A stretch of DNA of 64,000 nucleotides from an uncultured bacterium (GTDB lineage: Bacteria; Zixibacteria; MSB-5A5; UBA10806). The notes under the pieces were generated by a model. That model was not told where the DNA came from, searched no databases, and saw only the letters and a list, made by a program, of their open reading frames with translations. The stretch covers positions 32,001 to 96,000 of the forward strand of contig CBEUCH010000013.1 in assembly GCA_965541585.1 (NCBI GenBank), given 5' to 3'. How positions within the stretch are numbered: position 1 is the first letter of the stretch; each line of letters begins with the position of its first letter. The position numbers were made by a program, and so were the translations under genes. Below are positions 2,788-11,383 of the stretch, in pieces.

Positions 2788-3360
2788 ATGACTTACTCGA
2801 ATCGGAATAAGCCTCGACCGCTGGTTGATAGATATCCGTACAGCATAATAATTCCCCGCTGGTTTTTTGCGGTGGCCGAGATGGGGTTGGCGTCCTATTT
2901 TGTTTTTTCACTCAATTTTGAGCTGGGGCTGATCTTCCTTACCTATGGAGTCGTCTGCGCCTTCCTTCTGCTTCCATTGATCAGATGCGTCCGGTGCTAT
3001 TACTACGGCAAACGATGCAATTTCGGGTGGGGTATTCTGGTATCCAGACTGCTGCCGAAAGTCGAGGGTGAGAACTACGCCTCCAGCTACGGATATTCGA
3101 TTCTCTTCTGGCCCTTAAGAATTATACCATTCGGGCTTGGCCTGAGAGATATAATATTCGGCGTTTTCCATGGTTTACAATTTCTACCGCAAGGGGTGTT
3201 CGGCATCTATTTCCTCGTGATTTTTCTTCATCGGTGGTTTTACAGGAAATTGGCCTGCAGTAGATGCCATCAGCGACCAGGATGTCCGGTTTACGATGCG
3301 AAGGCGGTCATGGGGGACACCCTGAAAGTCAATACTGTTAGTGACACTGAAGAAATTTAG
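2788..3360 (+). CDS. Membrane protein with two Cys clusters (CxxCYYYGxxC; CxxCxxxxxCP)
   Basis: About 4 hydrophobic segments. CVRCYYYGKRC and CSRCHQRPGCP. Ends 30 bp before cstA. Confidence 0.65.
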   Translation: MTYSNRNKPRPLVDRYPYSIIIPRWFFAVAEMGLASYFVFSLNFELGLIFLTYGVVCAFLLLPLIRCVRCYYYGKRCNFGWGILVSRLLPKVEGENYASSYGYSILFWPLRIIPFGLGLRDIIFGVFHGLQFLPQGVFGIYFLVIFLHRWFYRKLACSRCHQRPGCPVYDAKAVMGDTLKVNTVSDTEEI

Positions 3361-3390: not shown

Positions 3391-5115
3391 ATGAACTCTC
3401 TCTTTCTTGGCGGCCTGGCTATAATTTTACTCTATCTCGGATATAGATTCTACGGAGCCTTTATTGAAAAAAGGCTCATCGGTCCCGAAGATAGTTTTCC
3501 CACTCCCGCTGTTACAGAAAACGATGGTGTTGACTACTCGCCCGCCAGGACCCCGATGCTTTTCGGGCACCATTTCTCCTCCATTGCCGGGGCGGGACCG
3601 ATCATAGGTCCTCTTATCGGGGTTACCTTTTTTGGCTGGTTGGTTTCTGCTCTCTGGATAGTCATAGGATCGATATTCATGGGAGCAGTGCATGATTATA
3701 CCTCCATGATGCTTTCGGTGCGCAACAAGGGTAAATCGATCGCGGAGATTGCCGGGATTTCTCTGGGGAATAGGGCCAAAATGGTCTTCTCGGTTTTTCT
3801 CTGGATAGCCTTAGTTCTGGTCGTGGCAGCTTTCGGCGATGCAACCGCTCAAACCCTGGTCAAAAAACCGGAGATCGTCATACCGACTTTTGGCTTGATC
3901 TTTATAGCCATCTTTTTTGGCCGCCTTGTCTACCGGATGGGCGTCTCGCTGATCCTCGGTACCATAATATCTCTCGGGCTTCTGGCGGCCCTGGTTTATC
4001 TTGGTGAGTTAGCCCCTATCTCTGTTCCGGGTATGGTTTTTGGAATGTCCGATGTCCGGTTCTGGTTCTGGATTTTAATGGTCTATGCTTTGATCGCCTC
4101 CGTCATTCCGGTATGGGTCCTTCTCCAGCCACGGGATTATATCTCCAGCTGGCTGCTTTATCTAGGCCTCGGACTGGGATTTCTCGGTTTGACAATCGCC
4201 CACCCGGATTTAAAGGCGCCCGCTATTGTGGCTTTTGATAGCCCGACGCAGGGGCCGCTATGGCCGATGCTGTTCGTTCTTATTGCATGCGGTGCCGTCA
4301 GCGGATTTCACTCCCTCGTGGCCAGCGGAACCACGGCCAAGCAACTTGCGCGTGAAGGACTCGGGCGAAAAATAGGTTACGGTTCAATGATCTTAGAAGC
4401 GGTTCTGGCAATTATGGTAGTCATGATTGCCGCCGCGGCCCTGAACTGGGATCCATCCGCCCGGAAGTCGGCTTTCGGTCTGCAATACCTGATGACTTCG
4501 GCCACTGCCGGTGGGGGAGGCGGTCCCATAGTCGCCTTCGCTACAGGTTTTGGCAAGGTGGTTAATATCTTGCCGGGGATCTCGCTTGCTGCAGGAATCT
4601 ATTTCGGGATGCTGATGCTGAACGCCTTCGTGATGACAACGCTCGATACAGCTACCAGGTTGGGGAGGTTTATTTTGACCGAAGCCGGCGGAGAAAAGTT
4701 TAAACTCCTGAATAACAGATGGCTGGCCACCATAATGACCGTTGCAGCGGCCGGGTTATTGGCATCGACAGGCGGTGTTAAGACTATCTGGCCGGTTTTT
4801 GGTGCCGCCAATCAACTCGTTGCAGCACTGGCGCTGGTAGTAGTATCATCATATCTGATCGGTGTAAAAAAGCCGAGGCTCTACACGGTTTTACCGGCAA
4901 TTTTCATGTTGGTAACCACAATCGGCGCTTTGATATTTAACATGACCGGCTTCTTCGCTATGGGCACCGCACGGGGCTATCTTCTTGGATGCGTTTCGGT
5001 TATACTCACCGCGTTAGCCCTTTATATTGCCTTTGAGGCCAGGGACGTTTTTCTGTTTCTGAAGCGAAAGAGAGAACCTATAGTGGCTCCACATCCGGCT
5101 TGGAGCCGAGAATAG
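3391..5115 (+). CDS. cstA: Carbon starvation protein A (peptide/pyruvate transporter family)
   Basis: TPA...DGVDY, LFGHHFSSIAGAGPIIGP, GAVHDY, IACGAVSGFHSLVASGTT, IWPVFGAANQL motifs. GGAG RBS. Confidence 0.95.
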   Translation: MNSLFLGGLAIILLYLGYRFYGAFIEKRLIGPEDSFPTPAVTENDGVDYSPARTPMLFGHHFSSIAGAGPIIGPLIGVTFFGWLVSALWIVIGSIFMGAVHDYTSMMLSVRNKGKSIAEIAGISLGNRAKMVFSVFLWIALVLVVAAFGDATAQTLVKKPEIVIPTFGLIFIAIFFGRLVYRMGVSLILGTIISLGLLAALVYLGELAPISVPGMVFGMSDVRFWFWILMVYALIASVIPVWVLLQPRDYISSWLLYLGLGLGFLGLTIAHPDLKAPAIVAFDSPTQGPLWPMLFVLIACGAVSGFHSLVASGTTAKQLAREGLGRKIGYGSMILEAVLAIMVVMIAAAALNWDPSARKSAFGLQYLMTSATAGGGGGPIVAFATGFGKVVNILPGISLAAGIYFGMLMLNAFVMTTLDTATRLGRFILTEAGGEKFKLLNNRWLATIMTVAAAGLLASTGGVKTIWPVFGAANQLVAALALVVVSSYLIGVKKPRLYTVLPAIFMLVTTIGALIFNMTGFFAMGTARGYLLGCVSVILTALALYIAFEARDVFLFLKRKREPIVAPHPAWSRE

Positions 5116-5330: not shown

Positions 5331-7055
5331 TTGGTTACTATGCTGGATAAAAGGATGGTGGGCGAAAACCCACAGGAGTCGACAAGAAAGATAAATATAG
5401 CCTCAGAACTCAAAAAATTCTCGGCTCCAAAAACCGAGTTCAAGATCAACGGCGGGGATGATTTTGCGCTGGGAAGAAATGACCTGCGGGCGTTGTACGA
5501 GGTTTCCCGGGCCGTGAACTCCACTCTCATATTGGATGAAATATTAAGCATCGTGATGCAGAAGTCGATAGAGCTACTCCAGGCGCAGAGAGGTTTTTTG
5601 ATGCTTCTGGATTCGGACGGGAATCTGCAGTTCAAAACGGCCTATAAGATCAACAAAAAAGATCTGGATGAAAGCGATCTTCAGATTCCATCCTCGATCG
5701 CACGGACGGTGCTTGAAACAGGGCAGTCGCTTTACACCTCCGACGCTTTGAAAGATGATCGTTTTTCGCATAAAAAATCCGTTCTGGAGATGAATATACG
5801 TTCGGCTATCTGCGTGCCTTTAAGGATCAAAGATCAAACCATAGGCGTCGTATATCTTGATAATTCAGCCAGAGCCAACATATTCTTAAAATCGGATTTG
5901 CATCTATTCGAGCTCTTTGCGGATCAAGCTTCCTTAGCCATACATAATGCCCAGCTTTATACAGAGCTTTTCGATCTCCAGCGATTTCAGGAAGCGACTC
6001 TTGATAAAACACCTGTGGGAATAATGGTCCTGGCCGAGAATGGGGAAGTTATCTCATATAATAATGCCTCCTTCGCCCTGTTGTATAAGGCCTCTCTCGT
6101 GCCGGACGATGGCAGCTATGATCTTCTGGGCAAAAACTTCCTGGAGATCTTACCATCCGCGGAACGGAAATTCTGGAAGGAGAACATAGCCAGATCGGCG
6201 GAGGTTACCGAGGAGATTCCTTCGCACAGGCAAAAGATCGGTTCGGATGATACCGTTTTCAGATATCGATTTTCGCCATTTCATCATGTGAGCGACGATC
6301 TGAACGGCAGGATTATAGTTATCGAGGACATCACGGAAAAAGTGATTCTGGAGCAATCCCTGCTATTATCTGAGAAGATGGCTGCCAAGGGGGAGATGGC
6401 GGCCACTATTGGGCATGAGCTAAACAATTATCTGACAACCATATCGACCAACGCCCAGCTTCTGCCGCGCATCTTAGAGAAAGGACAAATGGATAAGGTC
6501 CCGGCGAAGGTTGACAGCATCCTGGCCGGCATTGACAAAATGAAGCGTTTCACATCGGGCCTGATGGATTTCTCAGCCCTCGAGACCAGGAAGGCCTCGC
6601 ATGACATATCGGTTGTCTTAGATGACGTGATCTTTTTTGTGAAGCCGCTGAAGAAATTCAAAGCAATTGATGTCGCTCTTGATATAGCTCTTGATATTCC
6701 GAAGGTGATGATTGATATAGGGCAGATTCATCAGGTTATCTTTAACCTCTTGATGAATGGGGCCGATGCCATAGCGGACAGCGGAGTTACCGATGGGGCC
6801 ATTAGGATCACCGCCCGGTGCGAGGCAGAGTTTGCCACCGTGGTTATCTCCGATAACGGGCCGGGTATCCCGGATGATATTCTGTCAAACCTGTTTGAAC
6901 CTCATATAACATCAAAGACGTCCGGGCACGGATTGGGGCTTTCTATCAGCCTGAGAATTATTGAGAGCCACGGCGGCCAGCTTACGGCATCGAATAATCC
7001 AGATGGCGGTGCATCGTTTAAAATAAAGCTTCCATTGGGTAAGGTTGATGAATGA
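5331..7055 (+). CDS. Cytoplasmic GAF-PAS sensor histidine kinase
   Basis: GAF (SAICVPL, IGVVYLDN), H-box GHELNNYL, N-box QVIFNLLMNGADA, G1 DNGPGI, G2 GHGLGL. No TM segment. Exact start uncertain (5331/5340/5355). Confidence 0.9.
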   Translation: MVTMLDKRMVGENPQESTRKINIASELKKFSAPKTEFKINGGDDFALGRNDLRALYEVSRAVNSTLILDEILSIVMQKSIELLQAQRGFLMLLDSDGNLQFKTAYKINKKDLDESDLQIPSSIARTVLETGQSLYTSDALKDDRFSHKKSVLEMNIRSAICVPLRIKDQTIGVVYLDNSARANIFLKSDLHLFELFADQASLAIHNAQLYTELFDLQRFQEATLDKTPVGIMVLAENGEVISYNNASFALLYKASLVPDDGSYDLLGKNFLEILPSAERKFWKENIARSAEVTEEIPSHRQKIGSDDTVFRYRFSPFHHVSDDLNGRIIVIEDITEKVILEQSLLLSEKMAAKGEMAATIGHELNNYLTTISTNAQLLPRILEKGQMDKVPAKVDSILAGIDKMKRFTSGLMDFSALETRKASHDISVVLDDVIFFVKPLKKFKAIDVALDIALDIPKVMIDIGQIHQVIFNLLMNGADAIADSGVTDGAIRITARCEAEFATVVISDNGPGIPDDILSNLFEPHITSKTSGHGLGLSISLRIIESHGGQLTASNNPDGGASFKIKLPLGKVDE

Positions 7056-10000
7056 TCGCCTTATAGCCGGGCGATATAGAATCGAAGAGCTTTTGGGCGA
7101 AGGCGGTTTAGCTCGTGTCTATCGTGCGACTGACATTCTCACCGGCAAGGCGGCAGCCCTCAAAGAAGCCCATCCCGATGATTCGTCAGCACGCGAAGCC
7201 ATAATACATGAATACAGCTTCGCGTCATCGCACCAGCACCCGACATTGGTTTTTCCCTATTCGTTGATCGACTGTTCCGACGGAACTCTGATTGTCATGC
7301 CCCTGGTTGAAGGAACCGATCTAAAATCATGGTCGAATTCAACCTCCCTCAGCCCGGATCCGGATCAGGGAAAATCTCGAATGGATGGAGTCATAGCATC
7401 GATACTCGAGTGCGCGGCATTTATACACTTTTCAGGTTATTTATATAATGATTTCAAGCCTGCAAATTTCATGATCACCGGCGACATAGTTTCGAATGCG
7501 GCTGATAATATAAGACCGGTTCTTCTGGATTATAACCTGCTGACTCCCAGAGGCGGAAACCAGTCGAGGCGCGGCACTCTCGAATATATCTCTCCGGAGG
7601 TATTGAAAGGCGACCCTCCCGGAGTACAATCCGACCTGTACTCAATTGGAGCCATGATTTATGAGTTTTTTTCAGACGCTCCGCCCCTTTCCTCAACCGG
7701 TGACTCCGAGCTAATCAGGCTCGTTACAGAAAAGGGCAGTATCGACTTCTCTCGCATCCCGCAGCGCTTCAAAGAGGGGATGGAAGCCCTTTTATCTCGT
7801 GATCCGGGCCGACGCCCGCAGGATGCGAAGGAGGCAGCGGGGATTCTGGGCCTCGATGAGCAGTTTCAGACTCTCTTCCACGTCCGGATTGGATACTATC
7901 TGTCAGCCGGAACGCCGCCCTTTGCCGCCGAATTGGAGAGTTGTTTTAAGGACTATCTTCGCAGCATGTCCGAAAAGATCTTCCTGATCCGCGGTTTAAG
8001 CTATGGCACGAGCGCATCGAATTATCTGGCATCGAGGTTTGCGATTGATGGATTTGAAATCTATCGTATCCACGCCGGGTATGACGATGATGCGTCCGCC
8101 GCGATTCTCCATGATCTCCTCCAGAGAATAGACACCGGCTTTCAGAAAAGAACTCTACTTCTGGTTGACAGACTTGAGGATTTAAATGATCAGAATGTAA
8201 GAAAGCTCAAGGTCATCGCCGGTTCTCGCGGCGATGTCCCCGTGGTCGCCGGAGCCGGGCGCTGGCATGATTTTGGCCTGCCGTATGTTTTGTTCGATCC
8301 CTTACGCAATCAAACCAGGCATAGCGCCACTACCGAGGCATTGAAAGCTTTCTTAAAGCAATCGGAATTAAATTTCGAATACGATCGCCTGAGCGAAGCT
8401 ACCGGGGGCGATCCGGAACTCATTTATTATCATCTAATTAGCGCTGCCAATGATGGCAGATTCGATCCGCTCTCCGGCAAGCAGGAATATGATCTTCGCG
8501 TAATCGATAAAGCCATACCGGGAGTGGTCGAAGCCACCGGGCGGATGTGCGATTCGTTGAGTGTAAGCGGGCAAACCGTAATGACTAAGCTCTCTGTGTG
8601 GGGCGACAGGATTCCGATGCTTCTCATGACAGGATTTGATGAAAGCGAGCAAAAAACCATAAACAGCCTGATGGAATCGGGTCATCTGGTTCGGGAGAAG
8701 GATTCTGTGGCTTTTCCCTCCGGTGATTCGAGAGATTTAATCTACTCTCGAACCTCCCCTGGTGAAAAAGAAACCCTTCACCGCTATTGGGCTGAGGCGA
8801 CTGAAAAACGGTTAAAGGACACAGACGAATACCTGGAGGCGGTAGCGTACCACTGGGGTCGCTCCGATGATATAAAAAGGGGATTCGAGGCAAATCGTCT
8901 GGCCGCCGCAGAGTATCTGAGAAAAGGAGAATTATCACGCGCCAAGGATATCGCCAAAACTCTCCTTTCCCTCTCGGAGAGAGGAGGTGGATCGAAATCC
9001 GCCGCCCTGGAGATCTATGCCGATATCGCTAAAGCCGAGGGAGATTATCAGGACGCTCGTGAAAAATATTTAAGAATTCTCTGGAATCTGCGGCTTGAGA
9101 GAGACAAGTGTCTGGAAGCCAAAACCTTAAAAGACCTGGGAGATCTTTATCGCTCGCTGAGGATATCCCGGAAGGCTCTGCTTTATACCAGAAAGGCATT
9201 GAGCTCATATACAGGGCTGTCGGACGAGCAAGGGATGGCCGATTGTCTAAACAACATGGGCCTGACCTACTGGGTAAATGAAGATTACAAGCAAGCCCTC
9301 GATTCTTTCAATTCCGCGCTTTCGGCAAACAAAAGGATGGGGAATTATCGCGAGCTTGCGAAAATCCAATCCAATATTGGTATTATCAAAGACATAACAG
9401 GAAAAACCGGGGATGTGACCAGCCATTTCTTAGATGCTCTGGACTGCGCCAGGCAGGCCGAAGATCCCAGACTTCAGGCCCTGGTTTCCAATAATCTCGG
9501 TTTCTTTTTGATCCGGCAGGGCGATTTCGAGACTGCACAAAGGCATCTCTTCGACGCCCTTGAGATATCGGAACGTATCGGTTTTACCGAGGAGATAATC
9601 AATTCCCTGACGAATCTAGGCCTTTGCCATCTTCGGCTTGGCGATCTGTTTAAGTCGGTGGAAAGCAACCAGAAGGCGCAGGAGTGGGCCAACTCATTTG
9701 GCAACAAACGGTTGGCGGCTGAAGCTGAGCTTCATCTCACTGAGGCCTGTATCCTGATGGGTAATTTTTCACTCGCCGAATCTGTCTTATCGTCAATCGA
9801 ATCCGATAAAGTATATTTGGAAGATAAAACGCTGAAATCTCAGGTCGATTTGCTCCGCTCCAGATGGCAGGTGAATTCGGGATATTATGAGAAAGCCCTA
9901 AGAACTGCGGGGGCCGTTTCCTCCGAAGCCGGAATTGCGGGCAATACGCGCTTGAGACTCGAGGCGGGATTGGTCGTCGCTGAAGCGCAGATGACCTCTC

Positions 10001-10524
10001 AGCCAAAAAGGGCGCTTTCGAATCTGGCGGTTCTGGCCGAAGAAGCACATAAATTGGGGCATGGCGATCTGGCAGAAGCAGCCGGATTGCTACTGGCAGG
10101 CATATATCTGCTATTAAAAGACTATTTCAACGCCGAGGGGTGGATTGAAAAATCCCTCTCTGGCAGGAAGCCGCCTAAGAGAGCTTATATCGAGGCCTCG
10201 ATTCTCTCCTCCGAAATCTCATATCTTAAAAACAGATATGACGATGCAATCGATAAACTAATTGAAATAGAGAGTACTGCGGCGGCCTCGGGATTCATCC
10301 CCTTGGCCCTCAAATCATCTGTTATCCTGGGGGAGATATTCACCTCCTGTCTGAAGCTATCAAGAGCAAAAAGGGCTTTTGGAAGAGCAGTGGAATACAG
10401 AGAGAAAATGTTATCTGCCTTCCCCGTAAACACTTCCACCGCACCTCTGCTTAAGCTCCCCTCCATGGTACGTCTTGAGGCAGGGCTGGCCGAGATAGAT
10501 GAAAAGGCATTTTTGAGGATTTGA
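7048..10524 (+). CDS. Ser/Thr protein kinase - degenerate NTPase-like region - TPR repeat protein
   Basis: LGEGGLARVY, AALKE, YNDFKPAN, GTLEYISPE, SDLYSIGA kinase motifs. C-terminal TPRs (LNNMGLTY, SNNLGFF, LTNLGLC). Start overlaps the histidine kinase stop, suggesting translational coupling. Confidence 0.85.
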   Translation: MNDRLIAGRYRIEELLGEGGLARVYRATDILTGKAAALKEAHPDDSSAREAIIHEYSFASSHQHPTLVFPYSLIDCSDGTLIVMPLVEGTDLKSWSNSTSLSPDPDQGKSRMDGVIASILECAAFIHFSGYLYNDFKPANFMITGDIVSNAADNIRPVLLDYNLLTPRGGNQSRRGTLEYISPEVLKGDPPGVQSDLYSIGAMIYEFFSDAPPLSSTGDSELIRLVTEKGSIDFSRIPQRFKEGMEALLSRDPGRRPQDAKEAAGILGLDEQFQTLFHVRIGYYLSAGTPPFAAELESCFKDYLRSMSEKIFLIRGLSYGTSASNYLASRFAIDGFEIYRIHAGYDDDASAAILHDLLQRIDTGFQKRTLLLVDRLEDLNDQNVRKLKVIAGSRGDVPVVAGAGRWHDFGLPYVLFDPLRNQTRHSATTEALKAFLKQSELNFEYDRLSEATGGDPELIYYHLISAANDGRFDPLSGKQEYDLRVIDKAIPGVVEATGRMCDSLSVSGQTVMTKLSVWGDRIPMLLMTGFDESEQKTINSLMESGHLVREKDSVAFPSGDSRDLIYSRTSPGEKETLHRYWAEATEKRLKDTDEYLEAVAYHWGRSDDIKRGFEANRLAAAEYLRKGELSRAKDIAKTLLSLSERGGGSKSAALEIYADIAKAEGDYQDAREKYLRILWNLRLERDKCLEAKTLKDLGDLYRSLRISRKALLYTRKALSSYTGLSDEQGMADCLNNMGLTYWVNEDYKQALDSFNSALSANKRMGNYRELAKIQSNIGIIKDITGKTGDVTSHFLDALDCARQAEDPRLQALVSNNLGFFLIRQGDFETAQRHLFDALEISERIGFTEEIINSLTNLGLCHLRLGDLFKSVESNQKAQEWANSFGNKRLAAEAELHLTEACILMGNFSLAESVLSSIESDKVYLEDKTLKSQVDLLRSRWQVNSGYYEKALRTAGAVSSEAGIAGNTRLRLEAGLVVAEAQMTSQPKRALSNLAVLAEEAHKLGHGDLAEAAGLLLAGIYLLLKDYFNAEGWIEKSLSGRKPPKRAYIEASILSSEISYLKNRYDDAIDKLIEIESTAAASGFIPLALKSSVILGEIFTSCLKLSRAKRAFGRAVEYREKMLSAFPVNTSTAPLLKLPSMVRLEAGLAEIDEKAFLRI

Positions 10525-10533
10525 GGATCGCCC

Positions 10534-10561
10534 AAAAAAAAGGGCCGCATTTGAGCGGCCC
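10534..10561 (-). terminator. Rho-independent terminator oriented for the minus-strand peptide gene
   Basis: Minus strand reads GGGCCGC-TCAAAT-GCGGCCC-TTTTTTTT. Confidence 0.8.
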
Positions 10562-10583
10562 GAGTTTTCCGGTAGAGTGGGTA

Positions 10584-10661
10584 TTAGGATCCTGCTCCAG
10601 TATAACCGCCTGGGGCGATCCTTTCCTCTAGTTCCTCAACCTCAAGGATGAAATCTACCAT
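10584..10661 (-). CDS. 25-aa peptide MVDFILEVEELEERIAPGGYTGAGS (RiPP/pheromone-like precursor); absent from the ORF track
   Basis: Hand-translated ATG(10661) to TAA(10584). SD-like GAAGGGGGTGA 4 nt upstream. Terminator directly downstream, TTGACA upstream. Acidic EELEERIAP leader-like motif followed by GG. Confidence 0.75.
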   Translation of the reverse strand: MVDFILEVEELEERIAPGGYTGAGS

Positions 10662-10760
10662 CGCTTCACCCCCTTCCGGAGTTGTTGCTGCATTGAGGAT
10701 TTCACAAGGTCCTCGAGGAGGATTCTTTGGACATCCCCTCCTCGGACCACCATCTGTTAA

Positions 10761-10791
10761 AAAATGAAACGATTATCGATAACCGTGTCAA
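10761..10791 (-). promoter_or_regulatory. Putative promoter of the peptide gene with a palindromic operator in the spacer
   Basis: TTGACA (10791-10786). Weak -10: CATTTT at 19 bp or TTCATT at 17 bp. 18-bp near-palindrome ACGATTATCGATAACCGT at 10769-10786. Confidence 0.45.
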
Positions 10792-11383
10792 GGGAAAAAT
10801 GCAATTTTTTTCAGATAATGTGAAATCCTGTATACATGGCCAACATATGAAATTTGTTGGTATTTATAGTGTTATCGCGTAATATCCTGCAAGATCCCAG
10901 GGCAGAGATTTTGATCGCTTCGCGCGAATTAGCTTAGTCTGACCCCAGGAACCCGGGCAAATCCAGGAGGCCGCGATTGTGGGCCAGGTCCTTTGGGGGT
11001 ATTTACAACTGATGGCATCCGGGAAAGGAGCGATGCCATTCCCGTGAAAACGAAGATCCACTTTCGCATGGAAAGATTCCGCTTTGAGTGCCCTCTGGTT
11101 TCACGAGACAATCCAAAAAGTCGGGCAATGATTCAACTGGCTATGTGATTCCGGAAATGGTGAGGTAAGCTGATAAGGGCTTGCCTTCAGGCGTTGTAGG
11201 AATTATTTGGGCATCTGGCCGGGTCGATCGTTGGCTGGTTGTCCCGGGAGTTGGAATTACCTCATTTCGATGGGTGAAAGGCCTGATCTTCGCCACTCCA
11301 TGCACTCAAGGCAAACTCCCGGGAGAGACTCTAAGCACGTTTTGACAATCTCCAGTAGTTATAATGTTTTTTTAAAAAAGGAC

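Follow-up and report, generated by a model that had tools for sequence, protein, structure and literature searches.

A conserved peptide gene convergent to a kinase-STAND-TPR gene in Zixibacteria and its predicted RRE–site-2-protease–membrane-fusion partner

The window analyzed here, a stretch of 64,000 nucleotides from an uncultured member of the Zixibacteria (genome G000; 3.52 Mb, 98% complete), contains an open reading frame of only 25 residues that faces the genes for a histidine kinase and a kinase-TPR protein. Is this frame a gene and, if so, which protein would process its product and which would read it?

The peptide gene and its signals

The following features were located in the window.

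10584..10661, minus strand: precursor peptide gene, 25 aa, reads MVDFILEVEELEERIAPGGYTGAGS
10611..10661, minus strand: leader, residues 1-17, ending in ELEERIAP; predicted RRE-binding sequence with a predicted cut after Pro-17
10587..10610, minus strand: predicted core GGYTGAGS; phylum consensus x-G-[YFI]-S-x-G-G-[Q/S]
10666..10676, minus strand: Shine-Dalgarno sequence GAAGGGGGTGA; the GGAGG type is also found in homologs
10708..10748, minus strand: hairpin in the 5' UTR, present in the centroid fold and kept in the closest genera
10763..10804, minus strand: sigma70-type promoter with TTGACA at 10791-10786, a weak -10 (TTCATT) at 10768-10763 and a 17-nt spacer
10533..10561, minus strand: intrinsic terminator between the peptide and kinase genes, hairpin at 10561-10542 followed by a T run
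5331..7055, plus strand: GAF-PAS histidine kinase, cytoplasmic; overlaps the start of the kinase gene; putative downstream partner
7045..10524, plus strand: kinase-STAND-TPR gene, cytoplasmic product of 1,159 aa

The ORF, Shine-Dalgarno sequence, TTGACA, 5' hairpin and terminator all lay where a first-pass annotation of the DNA had put them, and the peptide gene was convergent to the genes for the GAF-PAS histidine kinase and the kinase-TPR protein, as described there. G000 held one copy of the peptide gene. Transcription would start at about 10756. An element upstream of TTGACA within 10763..10804, TTGCATTTT, was conserved in part in this order. The 5' hairpin was common to the 5 closest genomes tested, with some compensatory changes; as judged by eye, the 5' leaders of the remaining relatives were unrelated or shorter, and the fold of the whole transcript reached a z of only -2.0. 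A promoter scan called 0 sites, and within the window alone the signals of the gene did not rise above chance (terminators, 1 versus 1.1 in shuffles). Their conservation in relatives, given below, did. No family in Pfam or NCBIfam matched the window peptide. A role as attenuator or arrest peptide was ruled out, as the terminator has no co-oriented gene after it, and so was a sigma54 promoter, the TTGC being without GG at -24.

Conservation across Zixibacteria

A profile built from 29 peptides found the peptide in 234 of 285 Zixibacteria genomes (E up to 0.05), mostly in single copy. A strict DNA pattern matched 42 of the 285 and its reversed control 0; in viral contigs the pattern matched three times, twice inside longer frames. 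Relatives reached via the kinase gene carried the same ORF convergent to the kinase 3' end, and a convergent kinase-TPR gene was present within 700 nt of the peptide in 89 of the 102 genomes with readable flanks. Conservation of the ORF and linkage to the kinase, two of the points that the first-pass annotation named as checks, were both borne out. Public records that carry a name and show this motif and gene layout belong to Zixibacteria, and the phylum was assigned on that basis.

The counts below refer to 107 genes, which came from 99 loci out of 107 inspected. Their leader reads L-x-[IV]-E-x-L-E-x-[RK]-[IV]-A-P, with L11, E12 and P17 invariant; it may resemble the LEPR/LESR-type export motifs of planctomycetes. 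The core had 8 residues in 74 of the 107 genes, with the consensus x-G-[YFI]-S-x-G-G-[QS], and more than half of all cores ended in GGQ. The original proposal of a precursor whose acidic leader is of RiPP type and ends in IAP, followed by the short core GGYTGAGS, is supported. Ser or Thr occurred in 106 of the 107 cores and at +3/+4 in 86; G000 has Thr where Ser is common, Ile occupied +4 in 11 cores, and one core had neither Ser nor Thr. TTGAC[AGT] stood 60-200 nt upstream of 67 of the 107 homologous genes (11.1 when shuffled), and a terminator-like hairpin accompanied 97 (1.6 when shuffled). Over 18 codons in 18 close relatives, codon positions 1, 2 and 3 carried 8, 8 and 33 extra alleles, respectively. 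That the peptide ORF is a real gene is practically certain. Some cores (at L113, L118, L125, L127, L130, L131, L133 and L138) were extended after GGQ by a Gly/aromatic-rich stretch, which may be trimmed.

The double glycine had been taken as a mark of cleavage by a C39 peptidase. This part of the proposal was given up: GG followed the leader in only 12 of the 107 genes, and a C39 search (PF03412) yielded no match in G000 (98% complete), whereas controls were matched in 7 of 14. The cut falls more likely after Pro-17, made by the RRE-M50 protease described below, as in daptides. Pearlins were considered as well: the leader is weakly like their ammosamide/lymphostin leader (NF033737), and M50 proteases occur in pearlin clusters. 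Of 36 homologs, NF033737 matched 3, the best with E 0.008; the score listed was 15 bits, below the cut-off of 30, and the window peptide was not matched. The loci read also differ from pearlin clusters in having no biosynthetic genes, and a LanB/PEARL search (PF04738) found no match in G000, nor in any control. PqqD, SPASM and YcaO family searches of G000 gave zero matches; the PqqD search overlooked a fused RRE, so such blank family searches of G000 are no proof. Despite the GG behind the G000 leader and the three NF033737 matches, a precursor of double-glycine/C39 or pearlin type is highly improbable, as is an ORF that arose by chance around a terminator, in view of the rarity of GG, the blank C39 and PEARL searches (the latter blank in the controls too) and the coding-type conservation.

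The RRE–site-2-protease–membrane-fusion protein

The first-pass annotation had noted that no maturase is visible in the window. This holds for the window itself, but G000 encodes a candidate on contig C16.

G000:C16:74950-77238: RRE–site-2-protease–membrane-fusion protein; its gene lies among unrelated genes, away from the contig of the peptide gene

It is the ortholog of a 769-aa protein encoded directly upstream of the peptide gene in most families, which matched PqqD (weakly), Peptidase_M50 and HlyD, and best the model of the daptide intramembrane metalloprotease. The top NCBIfam match was this daptide model (NF041824, 215 bits, cut-off 300). The EpeP-type model NF058609 matched with E 1.7e-9 and 37.7 bits against a cut-off of 225. 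In the structural model of the G000 protein, residues 2-88 formed the RRE fold of lasso-peptide proteins (6jx3, Z 10.7, rmsd 2.6, 83 aligned; 5v1u, Z 10.4, rmsd 2.8, 82 aligned), 6jx3 being the complex of a lasso B1 protein with its leader. Residues 123-307 were SpoIVFB/RseP-like (SpoIVFB, Z 10.8, rmsd 4.2, 137 aligned) and residues 429-739 EmrA/MacA-like adaptor (Z 14.4); Foldseek with the whole model gave the adaptor only among the matches listed. PqqD matched 14 of 24 N-terminal domains of the protease. The motifs HELSH and NPLLKLDG were intact in G000, and HExxH and NP..LDG were invariant in 22 of 22 homologs. TolC-type channels are encoded in G000. In the Atlas, RRE-M50-HlyD proteins bear only generic names. 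At the start of the G000 gene (L201:8930-8950, G000:C16) a strong Shine-Dalgarno sequence precedes ATC and there is no ATG, GTG or TTG, so that a rare start codon may be used.

In most families the protease gene lies directly upstream of the peptide gene on the same strand; the two adjoin in 49 of 99 genomes. In the order of G000 the peptide gene was separated from the protease gene and stayed with the kinase gene. Over the 285 genomes, 228 had both peptide and protease, 41 neither, 6 the peptide only and 10 the protease only (raw counts 227/40/7/11; the peptide of G272 had been missed by the first profile, and the G095 match lay within a long ORF). Because kin are not independent, the argument from co-occurrence rests not on a p-value but on repeated joint absences, which recurred in six families (f1 genus g4, f2 genus g9, f3, f4, several f9 genera and two f18 genera). 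In 6 of the 10 protease-only genomes the kinase gene reached the end of its contig or stopped no more than 50 nt short of it. Three queries detected no RRE-M50 protein in four peptide-bearing genomes that are 80-93% complete (G004, G118, G121, G215). Of the 41 genomes without both, 33 were also without a kinase-TPR ortholog at about 200 bits, genus g4 being counted as having one. The peptide is thus predicted to be, very probably, a substrate of the RRE-M50-adaptor protein.

Leader and protease outside Zixibacteria

A wider genome scan matched at least 120 stretches, of which 80 were analyzed; many were antisense or in-gene chance matches. The same leader and protease were found in records of Acidobacteria, Deltaproteobacteria, Gemmatimonadota, Verrucomicrobiota and Phycisphaerae, and at nine or more non-Zixibacteria loci the protease gene was next to the peptide gene. 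Cores there were 30-80 residues long, rich in Gly, Asn and Pro and often arrayed beside the protease (long-core loci L213, L228, L233, L243, L245, L248, L258, L259, L270, L278, L289 and L291), with near-identical cores (NPGNNNPP..., GYEGQPGNQGG repeats) in unrelated phyla and up to six per locus. No modifying enzyme was among 25 proteins scanned at these non-Zixibacteria loci, and at many protease-peptide loci the 12 kb that were read contained no kinase gene. At L269:2480-5761 the leader opens a frame of more than 1,000 residues, which suggests that it can tag large cargo. The gemmatimonadal locus L265 (Gemmatimonadales) encodes three peptides with basic cores of 5-7 residues, the protease, a GAF-HlyD and an HlyD protein, together with a BTAD-AAA regulator and a kinase.

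The kinase-STAND-TPR protein as predicted receptor

The model of the 1,159-aa protein (pLDDT 89.7) consists of a kinase, a STAND-like module and a TPR superhelix.

Residues ~10-260: Hanks kinase
Residues ~300-570: degenerate STAND-type module
Residues ~600-1158: TPR superhelix, with an Asn ladder at N736/N737/N777/N816/N817/N857, spaced by 40 residues

AAA_16 did not match the G000 protein, its NTPase being degenerate, and neither this protein nor the histidine kinase contains a membrane segment. Sixteen kinase residues were near-invariant in 54 orthologs. Among the nearest solved relatives of the TPR are kinesin light chain, LGN/Pins and OGT, whose TPRs bind extended peptides. Contacts of Asn with the peptide backbone are a feature of peptide-binding TPRs described for Rap-Phr in PMC3601957.

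As evident from 50 peptide-bearing orthologs, the ladder was kept at 10-13 of 13 sites in 49 and at 8 in G135, which has an aberrant truncated core (IGWSID) and an altered first Asn pair. The four genomes of g4, without peptide and protease, retained 5-7 of the 13 sites and had deletions within repeat three, whereas all 16 of the 16 kinase residues were kept; the 13 sites had been chosen on an alignment that included the g4 rows, and because g4 is one lineage, the decay counts as one event. When four regions were compared in the nine other f1 genomes, the TPR core showed the highest conservation, with 50-85% identity to G000. In g4 it was about the least conserved, with 29-32% identity to G000 compared with 38-42% for the kinase. 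G098 and G099 no longer carry the peptide-protease block, yet their ladder is still at 13/13, which fits only a recent deletion of peptide and protease. Groove residues varied with the core type: cores ending in GGR went with SY/SF at the first Asn pair, and GAGS/GSGS cores with K773/I780, a covariation that follows lineages, in counts that ignore kinship. For the TPR region of G039 (480-900) and the 34-aa precursor of that genome, complex prediction scored 0.02, which is evidence neither way. The tight linkage and the decay of the ladder after peptide loss support the earlier suggestion of a TPR peptide receptor, and the peptide is probably a ligand of the TPR. The first-pass annotation had also raised phosphorylation of the peptide by the kinase; this is possible and now less favored, since the kinase remains catalytically intact once the peptide is lost.

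Downstream partner of the kinase

The histidine kinase GAF domain has many conserved Ser and Thr residues, and at L260 the histidine kinase is fused to the kinase-TPR protein. In acidobacterial locus L282, a kinase-STAND-TPR-GAF-sigma54 gene is followed by a peptide gene with a 6-residue core and then by the protease, and the GAF behind the kinase-STAND-TPR part is homologous to that of the histidine kinase. The histidine kinase has stayed conserved in genus g4, with an interruption in G013. In genus g62, which is without a kinase ortholog, two genomes (G122, G124) have the GAF deleted, and in a third (G120) it is decayed. We infer that the GAF is the partner or substrate of the kinase.

The peptide of g62 has been amplified to tandem arrays of 4-7 genes with different cores (Ser-[RK]-[YWF]-Gly), the +4 Ser being lost and the protease gene lying alongside; it may have been repurposed.

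L181:9609-11348 (G122): array of 7 peptide genes
L182:10191-11249 (G124): array of 5
L183:9542-10656 (G120): array of 4

Proposed circuit and its alternatives

In the scheme we propose, the RRE–site-2-protease–membrane-fusion protein would bind the leader, cut the precursor after Pro-17 and itself export the 8-residue core, presumably through a TolC-type channel. The core would then be taken back into the cytoplasm and dock in the TPR groove of the neighboring kinase, which it may activate or inhibit, and the kinase would signal via the GAF of the adjacent histidine kinase. Since G000 has one Opp-type binding protein, re-import is possible; no dedicated importer was seen linked to the peptide loci, and CstA occurs in the kinase operon only in some genomes, some of them without the peptide. 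We give the whole circuit with export and return an even chance. Tentatively, it could be generalized as phylum-wide peptide signaling in double-membraned bacteria. The RRE–protease–adaptor protein would by itself process and export whatever cargo bears the leader, and the Zixibacteria octapeptide would be read inside the cell by the kinase-STAND-TPR protein, which would relay the signal, through Ser/Thr phosphorylation, to the GAF histidine kinase (in the acidobacterium, to a GAF-sigma54 activator).

The co-loss and the ladder decay also fit a reading in which no signal passes between cells. The TPR would then bind precursor or core in the producer, with the protease-adaptor as a sink and the kinase reporting the state of export or of the envelope. 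Both kinases being without membrane segments, the lack of a linked importer and the likeness of cores between genera (the GGQ end in more than half of the 107), which is unlike kin-specific signals, agree with such a monitor. We nevertheless regard it as unlikely: the adaptor fused to the protease is periplasmic and points beyond the outer membrane, core classes are lineage-specific with matching changes in the groove, and G000 has its Opp-type binding protein. Less probable still is that the kinase serves as the maturase, with the TPR holding the precursor, the kinase phosphorylating Ser/Thr of the core and the protease exporting a phosphopeptide. The near-universal Ser/Thr in the cores (106 of 107, 86 at +3/+4, Thr in G000 at the common Ser position), the near-invariant catalytic residues, the absence of PqqD, SPASM, YcaO and C39 family matches from G000 and the loss of the +4 Ser in kinase-less g62 would be explained in this way. 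However, the kinase of g4 kept 16/16 residues after peptide loss and so has another substrate, the GAF decays upon kinase loss, one core is without Ser/Thr and 11 have Ile at +4.

To the same low degree we credit an unmodified exported product (effector, matrix or antimicrobial) with the kinase-TPR gene merely an old neighbor. Outside the phylum the leader does head arrays of 30-80-residue cores beside the protease without a kinase, it opens the 1,000-residue frame of L269, and the g62 arrays persist without the kinase. Against this, the peptide gene of the present order parted from the protease and remained with the kinase, and the ladder decay was specific to peptide loss.

Comparison with known systems

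Among known systems, daptides come closest in processing. The preprint bioRxiv 10.1101/2023.03.08.531785 places an RRE-site-2 peptidase, said to remove the leader, beside ELExMEAP leaders numbered to P(-1), and, with PMC12670281, describes MpaP/DapP with the RRE N-terminal to the M50 protease, as here. Shared with daptides are an acidic leader ending in E-L-E-x-x-x-A-P, a core counted after Pro and several precursors per locus in some genomes; ELEERIAP and ELExMEAP have E-L-E and A-P in common and not M-E. Unlike in daptides, a membrane-fusion adaptor is fused C-terminally, the peptidase score is below the family cut-off, C-terminal Thr occurs in 0 of the 107 peptides, the core is short, polar and linked to a kinase-TPR gene, and decarboxylase, aminotransferase and methyltransferase of the DapBCDM type were not among the conserved neighbors at the loci read. 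One M50 intramembrane protease, EpeP (YydH, with EpeX/YydF, in Bacillus subtilis), is thought both to cleave and to export its peptide, according to PMC10885120, which resembles the route proposed here; epipeptides differ in that a radical SAM/SPASM match is absent from G000 and in the RRE and adaptor fused to the protease.

In reception, the likeness is to RRNPP systems. Peptide signaling via intracellular TPR receptors is described for Firmicutes in PMC10075063, and there and in PMC3601957 (Rap-Phr, PlcR-PapR) a small propeptide gene lies beside a gene for a cytoplasmic TPR protein with conserved Asn, the short mature peptide being at the C-terminus, as is predicted here. Three of five RRNPP features were found, a propeptide of 10-100 aa (here 25), a TPR receptor and adjacent genes (89/102). 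The other two were not: the receptor has 1,159 rather than 250-500 aa, and there is no Sec/PptAB-type signal, the leader, as read from its sequence, being acidic and without a basic N-region or hydrophobic core. Further differences are a kinase and STAND-type module in place of an HTH or helix bundle, the RRE/M50/adaptor route and a double-membraned host.

MalT is a STAND signaling protein with a TPR sensor. The NTPase-helical-winged-helix-TPR architecture is that of STAND proteins with a TPR sensor (PDB 6mfv; AfsR, 8k60), from which the Zixibacteria protein differs by its N-terminal Hanks kinase output, the NTPase degenerate in G000 and a predicted ligand that is a gene-encoded peptide. Our literature search, which covered subscription papers little, found no description of a peptide-protease-kinase system of this kind. 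If the proposal is right, TPR-receptor peptide signaling, of a type known mainly in bacteria with a single membrane, would extend from Firmicutes to a double-membraned uncultured phylum with different parts, namely RiPP-style leader recognition, a fusion of intramembrane protease and efflux adaptor, and a kinase receptor of eukaryote-like type. The widespread kinase-STAND-TPR(-GAF-sigma54) proteins would gain a candidate ligand and RRE-M50-HlyD proteins a class of substrates, and a cut-and-export route in one protein would serve peptide secretion. Natural cognate and non-cognate pairs (GAGS, GGQ and GGR cores; the decayed g4 receptor) allow tests with synthetic octapeptides.

Genomic surroundings

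The first-pass annotation had placed the peptide just upstream of a surface-scaffold cluster. That link was found within this order; elsewhere the upstream neighbor was the protease (49 of 99 genomes) or other genes, and the link was rejected as a general feature, being lineage-specific. In other families (L111-L150), the histidine kinase comes after an NtrY/NtrX-like pair, an Omp85-family protein and DUF4390, while the protease has a CLC channel and a DAO-family oxidase behind it. The genes around the kinase operon in the window include the following.

1428-2708: 426-aa protein that combines a bactofilin-like repeat and several membrane segments; within this order it is conserved, its gene pointing away from the kinase operon
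2788-3360: 190-aa Cys-rich membrane protein without a Pfam match; of the 21 regions read in this order, 15 have it upstream of the histidine kinase
3391-5115: CstA peptide/pyruvate transporter, before the histidine kinase in 8 of the 21 regions read in this order
19457-42196: ORF of 7,579 aa that comes after cohesin/dockerin and T9SS-tail genes
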